Below, piece by piece: positions 6,012-58,603 of a DNA stretch of 64,000 nucleotides. This DNA is from an uncultured cyanobacterium (GTDB lineage: Bacteria; Cyanobacteriota; Cyanobacteriia; Cyanobacteriales; Nostocaceae). Under the pieces are notes generated by a model, which saw only the letters and a list, made by a program, of their open reading frames with translations, made no database searches and was not told where the DNA came from. A program made the translations under genes and the position numbers. Where the stretch lies: NCBI GenBank assembly GCA_963706595.1, contig OY970166.1, forward strand, positions 2,912,001 to 2,976,000. The letters run 5' to 3'. The first letter of the stretch is position 1; every line of letters begins with the position of its first letter.

Positions 6012-6083
6012 TGGGTCGCCCGAGACTCGAACTCGGAACAAATCGGTTAAAAGCCGAGTACTCTACCATTGAGTTAGCGACCC
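6012..6083 (-). tRNA. trnK: tRNA-Lys (anticodon UUU)
   Basis: Reverse complement GGGTCGCTAACTCAATGGTAGAGTACTCGGCTTTTAACCGATTTGTTCCGAGTTCGAGTCTCGGGCGACCCA folds as a cloverleaf with TTT anticodon and GTTCGA T-loop. Confidence 0.96.
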
Positions 6084-49788: not shown

Positions 49789-52700
49789 TTAAACTGACAT
49801 GATATCATTTTTACCATTTTCAAATCTATATTCACGATTGTAGTTATCATCTGGATCATAACCAATATCGCCCACAAAACAGAAGGATCTGACTAAATTA
49901 AAGGTTCTAGTTTCAAAATAAAATTCTTCTCGTGGGGACATTTTGAGAAAGTCGTTTTTAAACTTCTTCCATTCCCTTTTGTTATGTATATCCATTAATT
50001 TATCGTGATTTTTTAAGCGTTCTAGCCAAATATCTTTTTCAATTATTAGCGTGTTTTCATCTGTTTCTTCAAATTCTAAATAAATCTCTTCTAATAGTTT
50101 TCGCATTTCCTGGGGATATCGACCAGCTAAAGCTAAAAATGCAATTAATGTTTGCTTGTATTCTGGACTTGGTTCTTCTTTCCAAGTTTTATCATTCTCT
50201 ACTGGAGTCCAGATTATTTTAATGATTTTGCAAATATTAATCAGTCGTTTTGCAGTTCTGGGAGTTAAATCAACGTGCTGACAAGCTTCTGATATCCATT
50301 TAAATTCCTCAGCAGTAAATCTTTCAAAACTAACTAATGGATCTGTATTTGCAGAATGTTGGATTTTTGTATTGTTTTTTTCTAAATTAGATTCTCTATT
50401 GTTGGGTTGAGAAATACCTTTAACAACTGAGTTTTTAGTAGGAGTAGGTACTGGTAAATTAAAATCTTCCTCTGTTGGTTCTTCAGTATCAACAGGTATT
50501 TCTGCAATTTCATTTTGATATGATTGTTCGGGGAATTGTTCTACAATGCTACTTTCATCAGTTAGTTCTTGTAAGGGGATAAAATCTTCTCCGGTTGTTT
50601 GTTCTAAAAATGTATTTTCATTAGTTACTTGTTGGAACATTGCGAAACTTTCTGAGTTGTCTGGTGTAAAATCCTCTTCAACATCTACCAAAGATTTTAA
50701 ATAACTCGCTGTCACATCCTTACTAATTGGTCGCATTCTGTAGGGAAGTTGGATAATTTTCTCTATATAGTCAACACCACAGGGAGTACCACCACGTTTT
50801 AACACACCTTTGTAAGTGTGTTCTAAAGCCCGACCAATATAACGGTCATCTATTGCTAAAACAATGATAAAAAGTTCTGTATTTAGCAATAATTGCACAG
50901 CTTCTAAAACTTGTACAACTCTATCAGGAGGACAACGATCTAAATCGTCTATATATAAAACTATTCTCGCCGGACCTCTAGGAAAATATTCTTTAAGGAC
51001 TTTAAGTTTTTCAGGATTTGTATTTCCTGATTTATAGCTTAAATGTTCAGATAAATCTGCCAAATCATCTTGAATTTGATGCATTAAACCGAGCATTTTT
51101 TGATAAGAATCTTCTTCCAAACGGTTATTGACAAAATCCACTAAAGATGTATATTGAGCAGTTAAACCAACACGCTGTTTTTGTCGTTCTACCTGTGCTT
51201 GCAGTTTTTCGATTTCCTGCTGTTTTTCAGTTAGTTCTTCTTTCACTGTTTCCTTTTCTTTATAAACTTGATCTTTCTGTTGTTTAAAATTTTTCTCGTC
51301 AATTTTAGCCTTAATTTTCTGAGCCTTCTCAGCAGCTAGTTTCTGTTTCTCCTGTTCTACGCTTTCTTTTGCTACTTTAAACAATCTGCGAATTTTAGTT
51401 TGAAAAGACCGGATTTTTGTAGATATTTCAACTCCGATACCGATAGCGGGAATTGTGAAAACTGTGGTTAACCAAAATTTTAACCACGAACCTATTTGTT
51501 CTATTAATGGTAAGGCATTAGATAAAATATAAGCAATAACATAATAAAATATAAATGGTAAAGACGTTGCAGCTACAAATATGAATATTATTTTTGGTTC
51601 TTTTTTAATAAACTCAATTAAACCAACTATTTTACTAGGTTGTTCTTCTACATAATTCTTAAGCCTCCCGGATTTTTGAATAATATCCTCTATCGTGCTA
51701 TCTTTGTTTTTAATCAATTTTTCAACTTGATCAATTAGATTCGATTCCTCTAATTTGTCTAACTCTTTAACAATCGGAATTTGCGCTTCCAAATTTTCTC
51801 GATTTTCAAATCCGTAGTAATTGAGAAAATCTTTAAAAATAGAATCACCAAAGTCATCTTTACGCAGTTCTTTGAGTTGAGTTAAAAAGACAATGACTAT
51901 AGATGTATTTTCAAATTCTTGATTTATTTTCCTTTCTATTTTTTCTGTTTCTTTATCAATATTATCCTCGATATCTGCAATTTTTTTCTCAAATTTACGC
52001 TCAATGTCTTGAATTTCATTTTTTACTTCTGCTTCTAAGCTTTGTAATTCTTTTTCCGTGAGTTTTAGCTTCTCCTGTTCTTCTTGTCTAACTTGAGTGA
52101 GAATATCCCAAAGGGCATTACCATCTGCATTTTTATCTTTTAAATTATCAAATACTTCCTGACTTAATTCCGACTCTAATATTGCCTTTCTATCACTATC
52201 ACTCATCTGATTTAGGACACCCCAAACGTCACCTCCAGCCAGCAAATCAGAAACTTTACTTAACTGCTGTTCTAAAGTTAATTGACGGTCAAGTTGATCA
52301 AAAATAGTCTGGATTAAACTTGCCCACAGGTCAGACTTTGCATAACTCCAGGCATTAAATTTGATTTGGTAAACATGACCAACATACGGGGAAAGATGCG
52401 CTTCATCTCCCTTATCACCCCAGGTCTGTTTTGCAGTTAGCTTTTGACAGCGAATTTTGGTAATTTGTTTTTCTATGAGGTGCATACCAAAAGATTTACC
52501 GCTACCCCAACTGCCTAAAATCGCCACTGCTAAAGGAGGTTCAAGACTCCGCAACATCAACACATCAGCCAAAGATTGCAGTTCTTTAGCCACATCTAGA
52601 GAGTCTTCACCTGTCGGTTGGTCATTGCGGAAAGCTTGGGGAACACGACGAATATTAAACCCTTCCCAACGCCAGATTTTGATACCATTTAGACCAGCAC

Positions 52701-54543
52701 TGATGATGTAGTCTCCCTGCGGGTCAAAAGCGACGGAATAAACCGGTCCTTCATCTTCTCCGATAATTATTTGCCAGTTGCGCTGGGGGTCAGAAATATC
52801 CCACAACCGCACTGTCTTGTCATGACTGCCACTGACAACGGTTTTACTGTCGGGACTAAAGGCGACTGAGTAGACAATATATGTATGACCAGAGAAAGGT
52901 TGACCGATAGCTTGTCCAGTGTTGACATCCCACAACCGCACTGTCTTGTCATCACTGCCACTGACAACAGTTTTGCCGTCGGGACTAAAGGCGACTGAGA
53001 AGACGGTAGATGTATGACCAGAGAAAGGTTGACCGATAGCTTGTCCAGTGTTGACATCCCACAACCGCACTGTCCTGTCATCACTGCCACTGACAACGGT
53101 TTTGCCGTCGAGACTAAAGGCGACTGAGATGACAATATCTGTATGACCAGAGAAAGGTTGACCGATAGCTTGTCCAGTGCTGACATCCCACAACCGCACT
53201 GTCTTGTCCCAACTGCCACTGACAACGGTTTTGCCGTCGGCACTAAAGGCGACTGAGATGACAATATCTGTATGACCAGAGAAAGGTTGACCGATAGCTT
53301 GTCCAGTGCTGACATCCCACAACCGCACTGTCTTGTCCCAACTGCCACTGACAACGGTTTTGCCGTCGGCACTAAAGGCGACTGAGAAGACAGTAGATGT
53401 ATGACCAGAGAAAGGTTGACCAATAGCTTCTCCAGTATTAACATCCCACAACTGCACTGTCTTGTCAGCACTGCCACTGACAACGGTTTTGCCGTCAGGA
53501 CTAAAGGCGACTGAGTGGACAATATCTGTATGACCAGAGAAAGGTTGACTTTTAGCTTGTGCAGTGATGACATCCCACAACCGCACTGTCTTGTCATCAC
53601 TGCCACTGACAACGGTTTTGCCGTCGGCACTAAAGGCTACTGAAGTGACAGAACCAGTATGACCGGAGAAAGGTTGACCTATCGCTTCTCCAGTGATGAC
53701 ATCCCACAACCGCACTGTTTTGTCCGAACTGCTACTGACAACGGTTTTGCCGTCGGGACTAAAGACTACTGACCAAACATACTTTGTATGACCTGTGAAA
53801 GGTTGACCTATCGCTTCTCGTGTATTGACATCCCATAACTGTACTGTGTTGTCCCTGCTGCCACTGACAACCATATTCCCGTCCGGACTAAAGGCTACTG
53901 AGGTGACAGAACCAGTATGACCTGTGAAAGGTTGACCGATAGCTTGTGCAGTGTTGACATCCCACAACCGCACTGTCTTGTCATCACTGCCACTGACAAC
54001 GGTTTTGCCGTCGGAACTAAAGGCGACTGAGTTGACATCATCTGTATGACCAGAAAAAGGTTGACCGATAGCTTGTGCAGTGTTGACATCCCACAACCGC
54101 ACTGTCTTGTCATCACTACCACTGACAACGGTTTTGCCGTCGGGACTAAAGGCGACTGAGTTGACAAATTCTGTATGACCAGAGAAAGGTTGACCGATAG
54201 CTTGTCCAGTGATGACATCCCACAACCGCACTGTGTTGTCTAAACTGGCAATGACAACGGTTTTGCCGTCGGGACTAAAGGCGACTGAGTTCACAGTAGA
54301 TGTATGACCCTGGCAGCTTGACCACTTTTCTCCAGTTAGGAAATCCCAAATTTCGATAGTAGCATCTGCTAAACCCACAGCTATGCGTCTGCGTCCCTGG
54401 GGTGATATGGCTACTGATAATACTGCACTCTGGAACTCGGCAAAGGGTTTTTCGGGTTCTGGGGCTGCTTCTAGGTCAGTTTCAATTTCTGGGATGATAA
54501 ATTCTTGGCTGCTTATTTCTTGTTGACCTTGGGGTGGTTCCAT
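49789..54543 (-). CDS. WD40-repeat / KAP-family P-loop NTPase fusion
   Basis: 12 near-identical plus 2 divergent WD40 repeats; Walker A GSWGSGKS, FNAWSY, TM and coiled-coil insert, Walker B IVLYIDDLDRC, YIEKIIQLPY, TPRTAKRLIN. Confidence 0.9.
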   Translation of the reverse strand: MEPPQGQQEISSQEFIIPEIETDLEAAPEPEKPFAEFQSAVLSVAISPQGRRRIAVGLADATIEIWDFLTGEKWSSCQGHTSTVNSVAFSPDGKTVVIASLDNTVRLWDVITGQAIGQPFSGHTEFVNSVAFSPDGKTVVSGSDDKTVRLWDVNTAQAIGQPFSGHTDDVNSVAFSSDGKTVVSGSDDKTVRLWDVNTAQAIGQPFTGHTGSVTSVAFSPDGNMVVSGSRDNTVQLWDVNTREAIGQPFTGHTKYVWSVVFSPDGKTVVSSSSDKTVRLWDVITGEAIGQPFSGHTGSVTSVAFSADGKTVVSGSDDKTVRLWDVITAQAKSQPFSGHTDIVHSVAFSPDGKTVVSGSADKTVQLWDVNTGEAIGQPFSGHTSTVFSVAFSADGKTVVSGSWDKTVRLWDVSTGQAIGQPFSGHTDIVISVAFSADGKTVVSGSWDKTVRLWDVSTGQAIGQPFSGHTDIVISVAFSLDGKTVVSGSDDRTVRLWDVNTGQAIGQPFSGHTSTVFSVAFSPDGKTVVSGSDDKTVRLWDVNTGQAIGQPFSGHTYIVYSVAFSPDSKTVVSGSHDKTVRLWDISDPQRNWQIIIGEDEGPVYSVAFDPQGDYIISAGLNGIKIWRWEGFNIRRVPQAFRNDQPTGEDSLDVAKELQSLADVLMLRSLEPPLAVAILGSWGSGKSFGMHLIEKQITKIRCQKLTAKQTWGDKGDEAHLSPYVGHVYQIKFNAWSYAKSDLWASLIQTIFDQLDRQLTLEQQLSKVSDLLAGGDVWGVLNQMSDSDRKAILESELSQEVFDNLKDKNADGNALWDILTQVRQEEQEKLKLTEKELQSLEAEVKNEIQDIERKFEKKIADIEDNIDKETEKIERKINQEFENTSIVIVFLTQLKELRKDDFGDSIFKDFLNYYGFENRENLEAQIPIVKELDKLEESNLIDQVEKLIKNKDSTIEDIIQKSGRLKNYVEEQPSKIVGLIEFIKKEPKIIFIFVAATSLPFIFYYVIAYILSNALPLIEQIGSWLKFWLTTVFTIPAIGIGVEISTKIRSFQTKIRRLFKVAKESVEQEKQKLAAEKAQKIKAKIDEKNFKQQKDQVYKEKETVKEELTEKQQEIEKLQAQVERQKQRVGLTAQYTSLVDFVNNRLEEDSYQKMLGLMHQIQDDLADLSEHLSYKSGNTNPEKLKVLKEYFPRGPARIVLYIDDLDRCPPDRVVQVLEAVQLLLNTELFIIVLAIDDRYIGRALEHTYKGVLKRGGTPCGVDYIEKIIQLPYRMRPISKDVTASYLKSLVDVEEDFTPDNSESFAMFQQVTNENTFLEQTTGEDFIPLQELTDESSIVEQFPEQSYQNEIAEIPVDTEEPTEEDFNLPVPTPTKNSVVKGISQPNNRESNLEKNNTKIQHSANTDPLVSFERFTAEEFKWISEACQHVDLTPRTAKRLINICKIIKIIWTPVENDKTWKEEPSPEYKQTLIAFLALAGRYPQEMRKLLEEIYLEFEETDENTLIIEKDIWLERLKNHDKLMDIHNKREWKKFKNDFLKMSPREEFYFETRTFNLVRSFCFVGDIGYDPDDNYNREYRFENGKNDIMSV
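52762..54309 (-). repeat. 129-bp (43 aa) tandem repeat array, 12 units
   Basis: Recurrent ..gacatcccacaaccgcactgtc..actgacaacggttttgccgtc..actaaaggcgactgag..tatgaccagagaaaggttgacc.. Confidence 0.92.
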
Positions 54544-55043: not shown

Positions 55044-55328
55044 TTAATTAATTCGCCCTGCTAACCAAGGTTGTAAATCAGCCACACTGTTAAAATCTAA
55101 TAGTGCTTCGCTCAAGTCTTCCAGAACATCTAAAGGTAAACCAGAAATAGATGAGCGTATTTCTTCAGAGATTTCTCCAAAGCGTTTAGTCAATTGTCGA
55201 GAAATAATATTAGCCATCACTTCACGAACTTTTTCAAGACGGGCTTCTTCAAGCCCTTCTAAGCGCCCTTCTTCCTTAACTTCTTGGTAAAACCTCGTTT
55301 CCTGGAGCGTGATGTTCGTATTCAGCAT
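55044..55328 (-). CDS. Orphan DUF4351-like C-terminal cassette (RpnS-like)
   Basis: Paralog of 55369-55620; GAAGGT-N7-ATG start; ETRFYQE..EEG..RQLTKRFGE..LEDLSEALLDF..W. Confidence 0.75.
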   Translation of the reverse strand: MLNTNITLQETRFYQEVKEEGRLEGLEEARLEKVREVMANIISRQLTKRFGEISEEIRSSISGLPLDVLEDLSEALLDFNSVADLQPWLAGRIN

Positions 55329-55368: not shown

Positions 55369-55671
55369 TTAATTAATTCGCCCTGCTAACCAAGATTCTA
55401 AATCAGCCAAATTGTTAAAATCTAACACTGCTGCGCTTAAGTCTTCCAGAACAGCCACGGGTAAACCAGAAATAGAGGAGCGTATTTCCCCTGAGAGTTC
55501 CCCAAAGCGTTTAGTCAATAGTCCAGAAATGGAATTAGCCATCACTTCACGGACTTCTTCACGTCCTTCTTCCTTAATTTCTCGGTAAACTCTGGTTTCC
55601 TTGAGGGTGATTCCTAACATAGTCTCTACCTCCATTCGACTGAGATTTTCAAACCTATACACCATGATTGT
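55369..55671 (-). CDS. Exon 2 of Rpn-like (DUF2887/DUF4351) gene
   Basis: Resumes after intron end CCCGAC with ACA ATC ATG (TIMVYRFENLSRMEVETML..); in frame with exon 1, giving 283 aa. Confidence 0.85.
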   Translation of the reverse strand, partial: TIMVYRFENLSRMEVETMLGITLKETRVYREIKEEGREEVREVMANSISGLLTKRFGELSGEIRSSISGLPVAVLEDLSAAVLDFNNLADLESWLAGRIN

Positions 55672-58054
55672 GTCGGGTAGGGCGGGGGCATTGCTACCCC
55701 TTTCCCCCCTAAGAACCGGACAAGCAAGTTTCCAAGCATCCGGCTCAAGCAAAGTCACTCCTGTTGGTAATGTACCTTTTGATGGCAATATTGATGTAAC
55801 CAAACTAGGTTTTTAGTTTCGCTTTTTCCACCATGACACCGAGGAATTATATGGTGTAGGTGTAGCGGTTCACCATTAAACAGTGACTCTCCACAGATAG
55901 GACATTTATAGTCTTGTTTTTTGGCTACATTTTGTTGGATGCGGCTGAGTTTTTCGGCAGTTGATTTATCCCTGATTCGTTGTCTTTTTTCCCAGTATTC
56001 CCTTAATTTTGGGTCGTCTGGGGAAGATTTATGTTGAACCAAAGGGTGTCTTTTAATGTTAAACCACCTAAACTTCAGCATATAAGCCCCAGAAGGTTTA
56101 TCTCCAAATACCCATTTGTCGTTAGGTCTATGGAAGTTTAACCTGCCCCAATATTTTTGTTTTTTCCATGCCTTTGATTTTTGAGGATGGGTGCGATTGA
56201 CAAATCTAACTTGTCTACGGAATAAATGGTCATCTAGTTTAGAGAAAGCTTTTGATGACACTACAGTTTTTAGATAATTAGCTTTGCCTCTAATTATGGG
56301 GTTGATGGCGGCAATTAATAATCCAACGTGTTTTCCCTTGTGTTCTAGGAAGACATTTTTGATATCATTTCGGGTTTGTTGCAAGAATTGCTTGCTGGGC
56401 TTGATGAGTAATTTGTATCCGGTTTTTGTATTGCTGACAGGGTAATGTCGGATATTGAAACCCAGAAAATCAAAGCCTTGTGTAAGATGAACTATTTTGG
56501 TTTTTTCCGGTGAGAGTTCTAAACCTCTAGTTGTTAACCAGTTGTTGATTTCATCTTGGGCTTTTTGTGCATCTGTAAGGGTTTGACAAAGAATCACAAA
56601 GTCGTCGGCGTATCTTACCAGTGTTCTGTTACTTTTGATTATTCCTCGGTTATCGTATTTGATTCCCAAGGCATCTTCCATGCCATGTAAGGCAATGTTA
56701 GCTAGTAAAGGGCTGATAATACCGCCTTGCGGTGTTCCAATTTCTTGGTCGTGGAAGACATTATTGTCTATGTATCCCGCCTTTAACCACTGCCAGATTA
56801 ATTTTCTACCTGGGAAATTGCCGATGGTAGTCATTAATTGGTTGTGGTTGATATTGTCAAAACACCCTTTGATATCCGCATCTACTGCCCATTTTTTTGT
56901 GCCATTTGGTCGGGTTGATAGATATATTTTCCCGATAGCATCATGGGGGCTTCTGCCAGAACGGAAACCGTAACTTATTCCTTCAAATTGTGCTTCCCAA
57001 CATGGTTCTAAGGCATTTTTGACGATTGCCTGTAAGCATCTATCCCGAATTGTGGGTATTCCTAGTGGGCGTTTTTTGCCATTGCTTTTGGGTATGTAGA
57101 TTCTTCTGACGGGTAATACTTGCCAGTCTTGGTTTTTGGCGAGGTCGTCCACCAATTTCCCCCTTTGTTGTGGGGTTTTGACTAGTATTTTGTCCACTCC
57201 TGCGGTTTTGTTGCCTTTGTTTTGTTGTGTGGCTTTCCTGATGGATTGCTGCACGTTTGAGTAACTTTTTAGCATCAGCCTTTGGAGATTACGGACTTTT
57301 CGCCAGTTACCTTCACGAGTTGCTTTAAATATGCGTCGTCTGAGATTCCTAACTCTCCGATTGACTTGATACCAGTTGATACTGTGCCAGTCGGAAGTCC
57401 TGTTGGTTACGTTTGCAGTATTTTGCATCTAACTTTTCCCAAATCAGTTCGGTTTCTTAACTTGGTCAATTCTGCTGACTTCACCTGCCAAAGTCTGCAC
57501 CCTTTCGGGTTGGGTATTGCCCTATTCGTCCAGTTATGAACCAATTAGTTTTGTTTCCTGTTCCCTTGCGGGTGACGACATTCGCTTGTTTGGCATCCTC
57601 TCCCCTCTGCGGTTTTCGGCTTTCCTTGCGGTTGGCTTACTCAAGTTTTCGACCTGGGCTTGAGACCTCATAGGGGTTATCCCGTTCCACACTTTTGAGA
57701 TGCGATATCTTTAGGTTTGTGCTATACTCCGGGAGATTTTTTGGTAGCCTAGGTAATTGATCACGGGAATTACCTCTTTGACTATCTCATCATCGGCGAT
57801 AGCCCTATTCTCCGCACTATCCCCAACCATCTTTATCGGAATAGCCTAGATTATCGAAGCCTACACAACAAACCTTGGATTTCTTACCCTAGCCCTTTCT
57901 TATCCAGATGGTTTAGATTCAGTCAGGACATTTCACCCTCTAGCTGTGAGACATCCCCGTTACCAGTGATGCCCCTTCGGGCGGATACTACCTGGCTACT
58001 AGGTAGGAGTCTTTCATGGAGACTCACTCAGAAAGTACGACTTTCGGTTCGCAC
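55672..58054 (-). mobile_element. Group II intron, 2383 nt, full length
   Basis: 5' GTGCG at 58054; domain V GAGCCGGATGCTTGGAAACTTGCTTGTCCGGTTC at ~55714-55747; domain VI ending CTACCCGAC; removal restores the host ORF. Confidence 0.93.
55755..57428 (-). CDS. ltrA: Group II intron reverse transcriptase/maturase with HNH endonuclease
   Basis: RPLGIPTIRDR, ADIKGCFDNI, GTPQGGIISPLLANI, RYADDF, FDFLGF, CPICG..HHIIP..NL..H..CH. Confidence 0.95.
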   Translation of the reverse strand: MQNTANVTNRTSDWHSINWYQVNRRVRNLRRRIFKATREGNWRKVRNLQRLMLKSYSNVQQSIRKATQQNKGNKTAGVDKILVKTPQQRGKLVDDLAKNQDWQVLPVRRIYIPKSNGKKRPLGIPTIRDRCLQAIVKNALEPCWEAQFEGISYGFRSGRSPHDAIGKIYLSTRPNGTKKWAVDADIKGCFDNINHNQLMTTIGNFPGRKLIWQWLKAGYIDNNVFHDQEIGTPQGGIISPLLANIALHGMEDALGIKYDNRGIIKSNRTLVRYADDFVILCQTLTDAQKAQDEINNWLTTRGLELSPEKTKIVHLTQGFDFLGFNIRHYPVSNTKTGYKLLIKPSKQFLQQTRNDIKNVFLEHKGKHVGLLIAAINPIIRGKANYLKTVVSSKAFSKLDDHLFRRQVRFVNRTHPQKSKAWKKQKYWGRLNFHRPNDKWVFGDKPSGAYMLKFRWFNIKRHPLVQHKSSPDDPKLREYWEKRQRIRDKSTAEKLSRIQQNVAKKQDYKCPICGESLFNGEPLHLHHIIPRCHGGKSETKNLVWLHQYCHQKVHYQQE

Positions 58055-58603
58055 GGTGATCATCTCTATTATGACGCTAGTTGATAGAGATGTTGCTTCT
58101 TCATGAGTTCTAGTTAACAAATACCTTGCTTCTTCTAGTCCTTGACTTTCCTCTACTGTAGTCAGTACCATCAGCGCTAACCATAAAGGGAGTTGGCGAA
58201 TATTACCCAATTCATCTAAATATACCCGATGGACTTGGTTACTATTCAACAATGCTCGATGGGGATAAATGCTACTCTGTTCAATTGCACGATTTGGATA
58301 TATAATTACTGCTTGCCAATCACTAAATCTTGCCCGGTTGCGATAGAAATATAGAGAAGATTCCGCAAAAACTCTTTCATAAAGCTGTTCATCCTTTTGG
58401 AATTGCACCTCGCAAAAATATACAACTCCTGCGTCTACATTTTCAGGTGGGAGAAATACCCCATCAATTTCAAATTTAGGTTCTTTGACAGCTACGGAAT
58501 CAAATCGATAAGCATCTGCATTTGTTGGTGGTGTTTCCAGTAGTTGAAATAACAGATTAGGCGATTGTTGGAACAGTTTGTAAAAAATCGAATCTCGACG
58601 CAT
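58055..58603 (-). CDS. Exon 1 of Rpn-like (DUF2887) nuclease gene
   Basis: MRRDSIFYKLFQ, IDGVF..EVQFQKD, VHRVYLDEL; ends ..IIEMIT at the intron boundary (183 codons). Confidence 0.88.

Follow-up and report, generated by a model that had tools for sequence, protein, structure and literature searches.

The 64,000-nucleotide (nt) window analyzed here, a stretch of contig OY970166.1 from an uncultured cyanobacterium of the Nostocaceae (assembly GCA_963706595.1; genome G000 below), carries a gene of the Rpn nuclease family that is split by a group IIB intron. RpnL/RpnS pairs are toxin-antitoxin genes-within-genes (Zhong et al. 2023, PMC10400941), and the interrupted gene has the layout of such a pair: a long nuclease and, from an internal start, a short tail that would serve as its antitoxin. 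We favor, with moderate confidence, a scenario in which a young intron that homes to rpn genes lands behind the internal promoter of the antitoxin and disarms the toxin. The intron would be a recently arrived, mobility-competent IIB element directed to one conserved spot of rpn genes that combine the DUF2887 and DUF4351 domains. Coordinates are those of the window, and all window features named below lie on its minus strand.

The intron (55672..58054; 2,383 nt) lies in sense orientation and in phase 0 between IIEMIT and TIMVY, and its ends read GTGCG and CCCGAC. It divides the rpn gene into exon 1 (58055..58603; 183 codons), with the DUF2887/TIGR01784 nuclease part and its residues D4, K40, D47, E65, Q67, and R77, and exon 2 (55369..55671; 100 codons), with the DUF4351 tail; the spliced product would have 283 amino acids (aa). 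Unspliced RNA would instead be read through eight intron codons to a TGA (58028..58054; stop at 58028), closing a 191-aa product. Seventeen codons past the junction, an in-frame ATG at 55620 opens an 83-aa RpnS-like open reading frame (ORF; 55369..55620), preceded by a GGAGGT ribosome site (55628..55633) with a 7-nt spacer. The intron boundaries are confirmed independently because empty orthologs read straight across the junction without duplication. The marks of a mobile IIB intron are present, namely GUGYG...AY ends and domains V (catalytic) and VI (branch; 55672..55748; Rfam RF00029, 55.8 bits; gathering score, 40). The intron-encoded protein (55755..57428; 557 aa) has RVT_N, RVT_1 (with its YADD motif), maturase, and HNH domains and no stops, and it matches TIGR04416 with 352.5 bits (cut-off, 300).

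An earlier note on this DNA, made from the letters alone, had proposed these intron coordinates, this phase, the internal start with its ribosome site, the lengths of the unspliced product, tail, and spliced protein, and the Rpn identity, and all of them hold. Against TIGR01784, the Rpn family with a curated cut-off of 52.1, the 191-aa unspliced product scores 57.4 bits and the G156 ortholog 80.8. The note's picture of an intron that separates the nuclease domain from the antitoxin start is right in that the intron lies before the internal start, but it marks no clean domain border: exon 1 matches DUF2887 profile positions 1-181 of 200, and in the model of the intact G156 ortholog (pLDDT [predicted local distance difference test], 92.7) the nuclease core occupies residues 1-130, while the junction cuts a helix at 172-189. 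Among 85 aligned protein rows, D47, E65, and K40 are invariant, and D4 and Q67 are kept in more than 90%. The internal methionine is retained in 85 of 86 related alleles (M201 is invariant in 85 aligned proteins of 29 to 94% identity), and GGAG or GAGG stands ahead of it in 77 of 84. Judged from these alignments, the internal ATG is more than chance and represents a conserved start.

The distribution of the intron speaks for a recent arrival. There are exactly two copies in G000, identical at all 2,383 nt; the second (G000:C1:1216254-1213872) sits at the same codon of a DUF2887 paralog, and the first exons of the two hosts are 80.5% identical. Syntenic orthologs in G156 (97% aa identity) and G218 (94%) are intron-free, and the second copy's counterpart in G047 (92% identical) is empty as well. 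In a survey of 87 loci taken from the best matches, 86 of which yielded a junction and together 88 alleles (86 distinct), no relative's rpn allele carried the intron (0/88), and no full copy was found outside G000 among 11 genomes of the genus and 389 of the family. A junction-pattern search, which cannot detect remnants, gave exact matches in G000 only across 401 genomes of the order, with 14 one-mismatch matches that lie outside any rpn gene; a metagenome pattern scan gave 10 loci, of which 4 are chance matches, 1 is a 5' fragment from G003, and 5 are sister introns, none of them in rpn genes. The earlier note had suggested searching other cyanobacteria for introns at the same codon, and only decayed remnants came to light. 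In G047, rpn codons 1-166 of a third allele run directly into 107 nt of the intron ORF (98% identical); the tail is gone, leaving a 207-aa ORF in which every catalytic residue is present. In G003, which belongs to another genus, the last 86 nt of the intron (99%) are joined to exon 2 at the same codon; the nuclease part is gone and a 77-aa DUF4351 tail is intact. Another G003 piece, a 109-nt 5' fragment (L107), was not counted as an rpn allele, having no tblastn-detectable rpn flank. Since the intron pieces are 98 to 99% identical and the host alleles only 76 to 83%, horizontal spread with separate insertions would account for the remnants. Every copy found outside G000 has decayed together with its host gene. 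On these sequence comparisons, the intron is a recent rpn-homing parasite, and its life history is not that of a kept switch.

These data bear directly on two explanations that give the host a part. The first, one of two put forward in the earlier note, is a splicing-gated defense switch in which stress- or phage-dependent splicing sets the toxin:antitoxin ratio. The geometry fits: the intron has sense orientation and phase 0, ribozyme and protein are intact, the long form alone needs splicing, and the catalytic residues are unimpaired. The old, vertically conserved position of a domesticated regulatory intron was not found; the insertion is instead strain specific, its copies are identical and young and retain a full mobility protein, the orthologs are empty, and copies elsewhere are decayed. 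The window copy is moreover mismatched at the splice-adjacent EBS1 (exon-binding site 1) pair, an extra tail gene would supply antitoxin independently of splicing, and group II introns generally lower host mRNA (PMC6003770), so that we regard a host switch as highly unlikely. The second explanation, that the intron is retained for sparing strains the burden of a toxic nuclease, draws on the finding that the three closest members of the subfamily in G000 are all interrupted, two by the intron and one by frameshifts, and on a different insertion near the same junction: at L180 (G148), a short palindromic repeat element has entered within a few bases of it, probably also in the distant paralog P0083, and the rpn junction may thus be an insertion hot spot. 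In the frameshifted member (G000:C1:2719629-2718760), the frameshifts affect the nuclease part; its tail is intact, and its target site is empty and matches poorly. Against host-selected disarming, most relatives' alleles read intact through the junction, exon 1 differs from G156 by 16 silent and 5 replacement codons with no relaxed selection visible yet, and homing alone accounts for the saturation. We consider such selection quite unlikely.

Target recognition follows the rules of a homing IIB intron. In the window, the intron-binding site IBS1 (ATCACC, 58055..58060) makes 5 of 6 pairs with EBS1 (CGTGAT, 57760..57765, in a hairpin loop), with a C.C mismatch at -1, and IBS2 (-14 to -10; 58064..58068) makes 4 of 5 with EBS2. 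We located EBS2 (ATCTA, 57851-57847) and EBS2a (57853; together 57847..57853) by aligning the intron with its sisters and applying the rule of PMC8643678, and both covary with the exons in sister introns L005, L031, L111, L117, and L118 when read by eye. At the second copy, IBS1 (ATCACG) pairs 6/6 and IBS2 4/5. EBS1, CGUGAU in the RNA, is the exact complement of the rpn family's modal -6 to -1 sequence, and 16 of 88 empty alleles would pair with it at all six positions. When scored as if empty, the site of the second copy ranks first among 97,183 anchored sites in the genome, with 11/12 against no more than 10 for all others. The window copy is probably a secondary landing, and it may splice less well.

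Just upstream of the junction lies the hexamer CATAAT (58068..58073), which ends 13 nt before the intron and overlaps IBS2a (58069) and the edge of IBS2. In the simplest reading, it is the -10 box of the internal rpnS promoter, which would place the transcription start, from spacing, at 58061/58060 and give a leader of ~58 nt. In E. coli, transcription of rpn genes also begins internally, yielding a short transcript that is the more abundant one (PMC10400941). The evidence here comes from conservation in genes that lack the intron. Across 86 intron-free alleles, G-21, A-18, T-17, A-15, and T-14 are invariant, and 85 have a purine at -7; position -19 is C in 84, and the other two have T and read TATCAT. 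Silent changes, counted on a tree of 84 rows (L180 and L201 were dropped as out of register), are correspondingly few: among 31 four-fold sites the third base of codon -7 changed least, a single time, while the encoded amino acid changed 6 times, and Ile -6 and Ile -5 changed twice each versus 13 to 19 times at four of five other Ile codons.

The clade to which the intron belongs offers a second line of evidence. When related introns (52 to 77% protein identity where the protein is present), 5' fragments included, are collapsed by target, 29 site classes result. A TAnnnT hexamer ends 12 or 13 nt upstream of the junction in 14 of them, versus 2.7% at other offsets in the same flanks, and YAnnnT does so in 17, versus 6.9%; the motif was noticed on these same data and the introns are related, so that P values overstate the case. 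Seventeen of 26 later loci had a 5' flank, and the motif fits none of 7 CRISPR (clustered regularly interspaced short palindromic repeat) sites and 9 of 10 others, one of which repeats L137 and most of which fall in site classes already counted. Ten motif-bearing classes have both flanks (9 of 25 loci in that set gave no 3' end, and L142 was added afterwards). Six of them fall in leaders or at starts of genes read in the same sense (ndhC, secA, efp, an Hsp70-like gene, and two of mobile elements, an ISL3 transposase and an IS605 tnpB), with one more doubtful, versus 8.6% of YAnnnT sites in G000. Upstream of ndhC, two different intron lineages stand one base apart behind TATAAT.

Each of these patterns must be weighed against plain homing into a conserved, multicopy coding sequence. 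The hexamer would then be an A/T-rich motif read by the protein together with IBS2a and IBS2, there would be no internal promoter here, the closeness to the RpnS start would be coincidental, and the insertion would be a leaky knockout. EBS2 and EBS2a, present and covarying with the exon, point to a normal homing IIB intron, and they also led us to discard the idea of a clade without EBS2, as in class C introns. IIB proteins such as EcI5 read the same positions, -18, -17, and -15 (PMC2882425); 12 of the 29 site classes, CRISPR repeats and YADD motifs among them, do not fit YAnnnT; and the rpn site lacks a -35 box. Plain homing does not, in contrast, anticipate a hexamer kept at silent positions in intron-free alleles with the compensatory TATCAT, which argues that the constraint belongs to the host gene, nor the excess of motif-bearing classes in same-sense leaders and starts. 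We therefore judge plain homing rather unlikely. A bolder version of the promoter reading holds that the clade's protein and RNA together read the sigma-70 -10 box and insert 6 to 7 nt into the transcript; one member would have become tuned to the internal antitoxin promoter of rpn, there gaining a promoter, silencing an anti-phage nuclease, sparing the antitoxin, and possibly reopening spliced and paralogous rpn mRNAs. This we hold to be possible yet doubtful, and the hexamer may be a protein preference that merely favors promoters.

Returning to the favored scenario, a structural model suggests what an intron at this position would do to the toxin-antitoxin pair. When the G156 ortholog was modeled with its own tail, the complex scored 0.70 in three of three runs (best control, 0.01); the contacts agreed to at least 84%, and partner pLDDT was at least 86. 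As a benchmark, 116 of 157 solved pairs attained the score mark, versus 2 of 215 mismatched pairs; an alignment of our own was used. The score may reflect self-dimerization of the tail. All confident contacts on the long chain fall at residue 184 or beyond, that is, in exon 2, so that RpnS could not hold the unspliced stub. With the predicted start at 58061/58060, the intron would lie both within rpnL and 6 to 7 nt into the leader of rpnS, and it would be transcribed from the internal promoter as well as from the gene's own. Because the RpnS ribosome site lies downstream of the intron, RpnS would be made either way and splicing would gate the long form only: the long nuclease would appear only after splicing, whereas RpnS and the downstream extra tail would be made with or without it. 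We take the gating to be a geometric consequence, with no sign of host selection. The stub, devoid of the whole modeled tail-binding surface, is probably inactive, or else splicing is efficient, since the insertion is tolerated and the G047 remnant keeps its tail-less 207-aa ORF. Insertion would thus amount to a tolerated partial knockdown of the toxin with the antitoxin intact, and such alleles would decay over time; any reopening of spliced host mRNA by the intron, as known for Ll.LtrB, would again affect the long form only. The earlier note's alternative, an intron that disarms the toxin and spares the antitoxin, is thereby plausible as to mechanism, in that only the long form needs splicing and the modeled contacts are all in exon 2; host selection for it is not seen.

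A range of results weighs against the favored scenario and belongs beside it. At the hexamer, Ile -49 is as fixed as Ile -6 and -5 (2 changes), neighboring four-fold sites also change only 2 to 6 times (2 at -8, 4 at -11), and the alleles are kin. A simple -35/-10 scan does not call the CATAAT site and finds no -35 box. A partial table of transcription start sites (TSS) of two Fischerella species, a candidate subset of 1,716 rows (PMC5580265), gave no rpn match when searched with 6 motifs; its three CATAAT rows, with the hexamer 8 to 9 nt before the end of the TSS strings, all belong to other genes. A at -15 is a general IIB preference (39/69 in the supplement of PMC8643678), so that part of the hexamer would be expected even if the intron sought no promoter. 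None of the closest sister introns lies in an rpn gene. The window site itself scores 10/12, level with 17 unoccupied sites, and its choice thus needs more than EBS pairing. DUF2887 proteins are presumed to be toxic, and PADLOC models gave no match to them. Among 14 RNA runs with small shares of the stretch, four of which were mapped onto it, none was from this strain, and splicing and the transcription start are accordingly predictions. One of these (X5) contains a joint 55671-58055, which we rejected as splicing evidence: its contig has 38 differing letters in ~740, a 24-nt repeat insertion, and no intron cover, and so represents another strain's empty allele. Run X13 covers the tail only and cannot rank parts of the gene.

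The intron and its host gene have further features of note. The intron protein has a +7 insertion after its FLG motif, compared with ~16 extra residues in IIB2. It is 41% identical to that of the published IIB2 intron of NC_007410, which lies on a different branch; in a 27-row tree, the intron's 21-row clade (support 90/89) stands beside a Priestia plasmid intron, away from the published IIB2 protein. Subgroup IIB2 (CL2) was rejected on the insertion of only +7 and the separate branch, and on protein likeness the intron is best placed as group IIB, chloroplast-like, with IIB1/CL1-like likelier than IIB2 when one reference per side is compared. The rpn tail carries variable EGRE-type four-residue repeats, which are longer by 8 residues in G156 and by 12 in G218 than in the window gene, and tails of related alleles are mostly 76 to 100 aa long. 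Downstream, a stand-alone duplicate tail gene (55044..55328; DUF4351, RpnSs-like, 94 aa) has an ATG after its own copy of the ribosome site (GAAGGT-N7) and a different repeat content; it is found in G156 too and is missing from G218. Neither this gene nor the second intron copy appears in the earlier note. Searches of the PDB with the rpn protein sequence gave no significant match, and Foldseek with the rpn model gave none at E<=0.001, with weak ones to EndoMS and BstEII; a PD-(D/E)XK fold is accordingly a putative assignment.

Sister introns occupy a wealth of other sites. A close sister (70%; L219, AP018282.1) lies 12 nt behind TATAAT inside the second codon of a leaderless-looking IS605 tnpB. 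One sister clade (L221 = NZ_CP054694.1, L009, L011, L014, L018, L021, L023, L128, L129, L251, L252, and L261-L265) inserts at one position of CRISPR-like direct repeats, and the array at L221 sits between annotated cas1 genes. A large group of others (L015, L017, L019, L024, L028, L120-L124, L130, L131, L253-L258, and L267) target one repeated noncoding element carrying TACAAT, and two (L020 and L139) lie just after the YADD motif of another intron's reverse transcriptase (RT) gene, forming twintrons. The sister intron at L006 lies in sequence that we take to resemble an IscB guide RNA. An unrelated group II intron (46% protein identity; L134, G167:C190) interrupts another gene, in phase 0, within an E-V-Q motif; this gene is presumably Rpn-like, and no Pfam or NCBIfam model matched it. 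Around the second copy (G000:C1:1209000-1221000) are two tandem pairs of what we take to be transposase-like genes and a presumed phage-tail-sheath-like ORF of 607 aa. In the window, right behind the rpn tails, 49789-54543 encodes a 1,584-aa protein with WD40 repeats and a KAP-family NTPase (Pfam KAP_NTPase; weak QatA and PifA matches), possibly a defense-type gene, which is missing at this site in G156 and G218; a tRNA gene (6012-6083) was identified by Rfam.

Literature searches, which covered titles and abstract openings with most subscription papers outside their coverage, found no published account of group II introns in rpn genes or of -10 targeting. A 2007 paper reportedly describes specialized intron lineages at start and stop codons and may bear on novelty. 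The part of PMC8919778 at hand makes no mention of "promoter", and the portion of PMC4424553 consulted lists three target specificities of bacterial group II introns (homing site, terminator, and attC), none of them a promoter. Our analysis provides a base-level prediction of the internal antitoxin promoter for a large cyanobacterial Rpn subfamily, and the natural intron-plus, tail-less, and tail-only alleles could show in what way the tail affects Rpn toxicity. Should the -10 preference be true, it would add a target rule to the three listed and would explain introns in housekeeping leaders (secA, efp, and ndhC), where failed splicing costs little; if the promoter reading is true, these introns would be the promoter counterpart of terminator-seeking class C introns.

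The host gene resembles RpnL/RpnS (PMC10400941) in its TIGR01784 nuclease, its conserved internal ribosome site and ATG, its variable four-residue repeats, its downstream duplicate tail (there RpnSs, with DUF4351 named), and, in the model, tail binding via a long first helix. It differs in being a cyanobacterial DUF2887 form known from sequence, whereas the published genes, in the sections at hand, were tested in E. coli only, along with one gene from C. difficile, and have no intron. The element resembles Ll.LtrB in its relaxase gene (Qu et al. 2018, PMC6003770), an intron that, once spliced, can reopen its own host mRNA: each is a homing intron on the sense strand of a gene from a mobile or accessory family, and each lowers, or here would lower, the amount of full-length host mRNA. 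Ll.LtrB is of subgroup IIA (PMC8643678) and its host gene has one product, whereas here an internal second product would escape the intron. With the IIB1 and IIB2 homing introns EcI5 and Th.e.I3 (PMC8643678, PMC2882425), the intron shares EBS1/EBS2/EBS2a pairing, protein-read bases near -18 to -15, and an RT-maturase-HNH protein. Unlike in those introns, the bases read here make up T/C-A-n-A-A-T and the clade has many of its sites in gene leaders, and unlike in IIB2, the insertion after FLG is +7, not roughly +16. Finally, should the promoter reading hold, targeting would be tied to a transcription signal as it is in class C (IIC) introns, which insert after terminators or in attC (PMC4424553); those introns lack EBS2 and use terminator hairpins, whereas this clade keeps EBS2.

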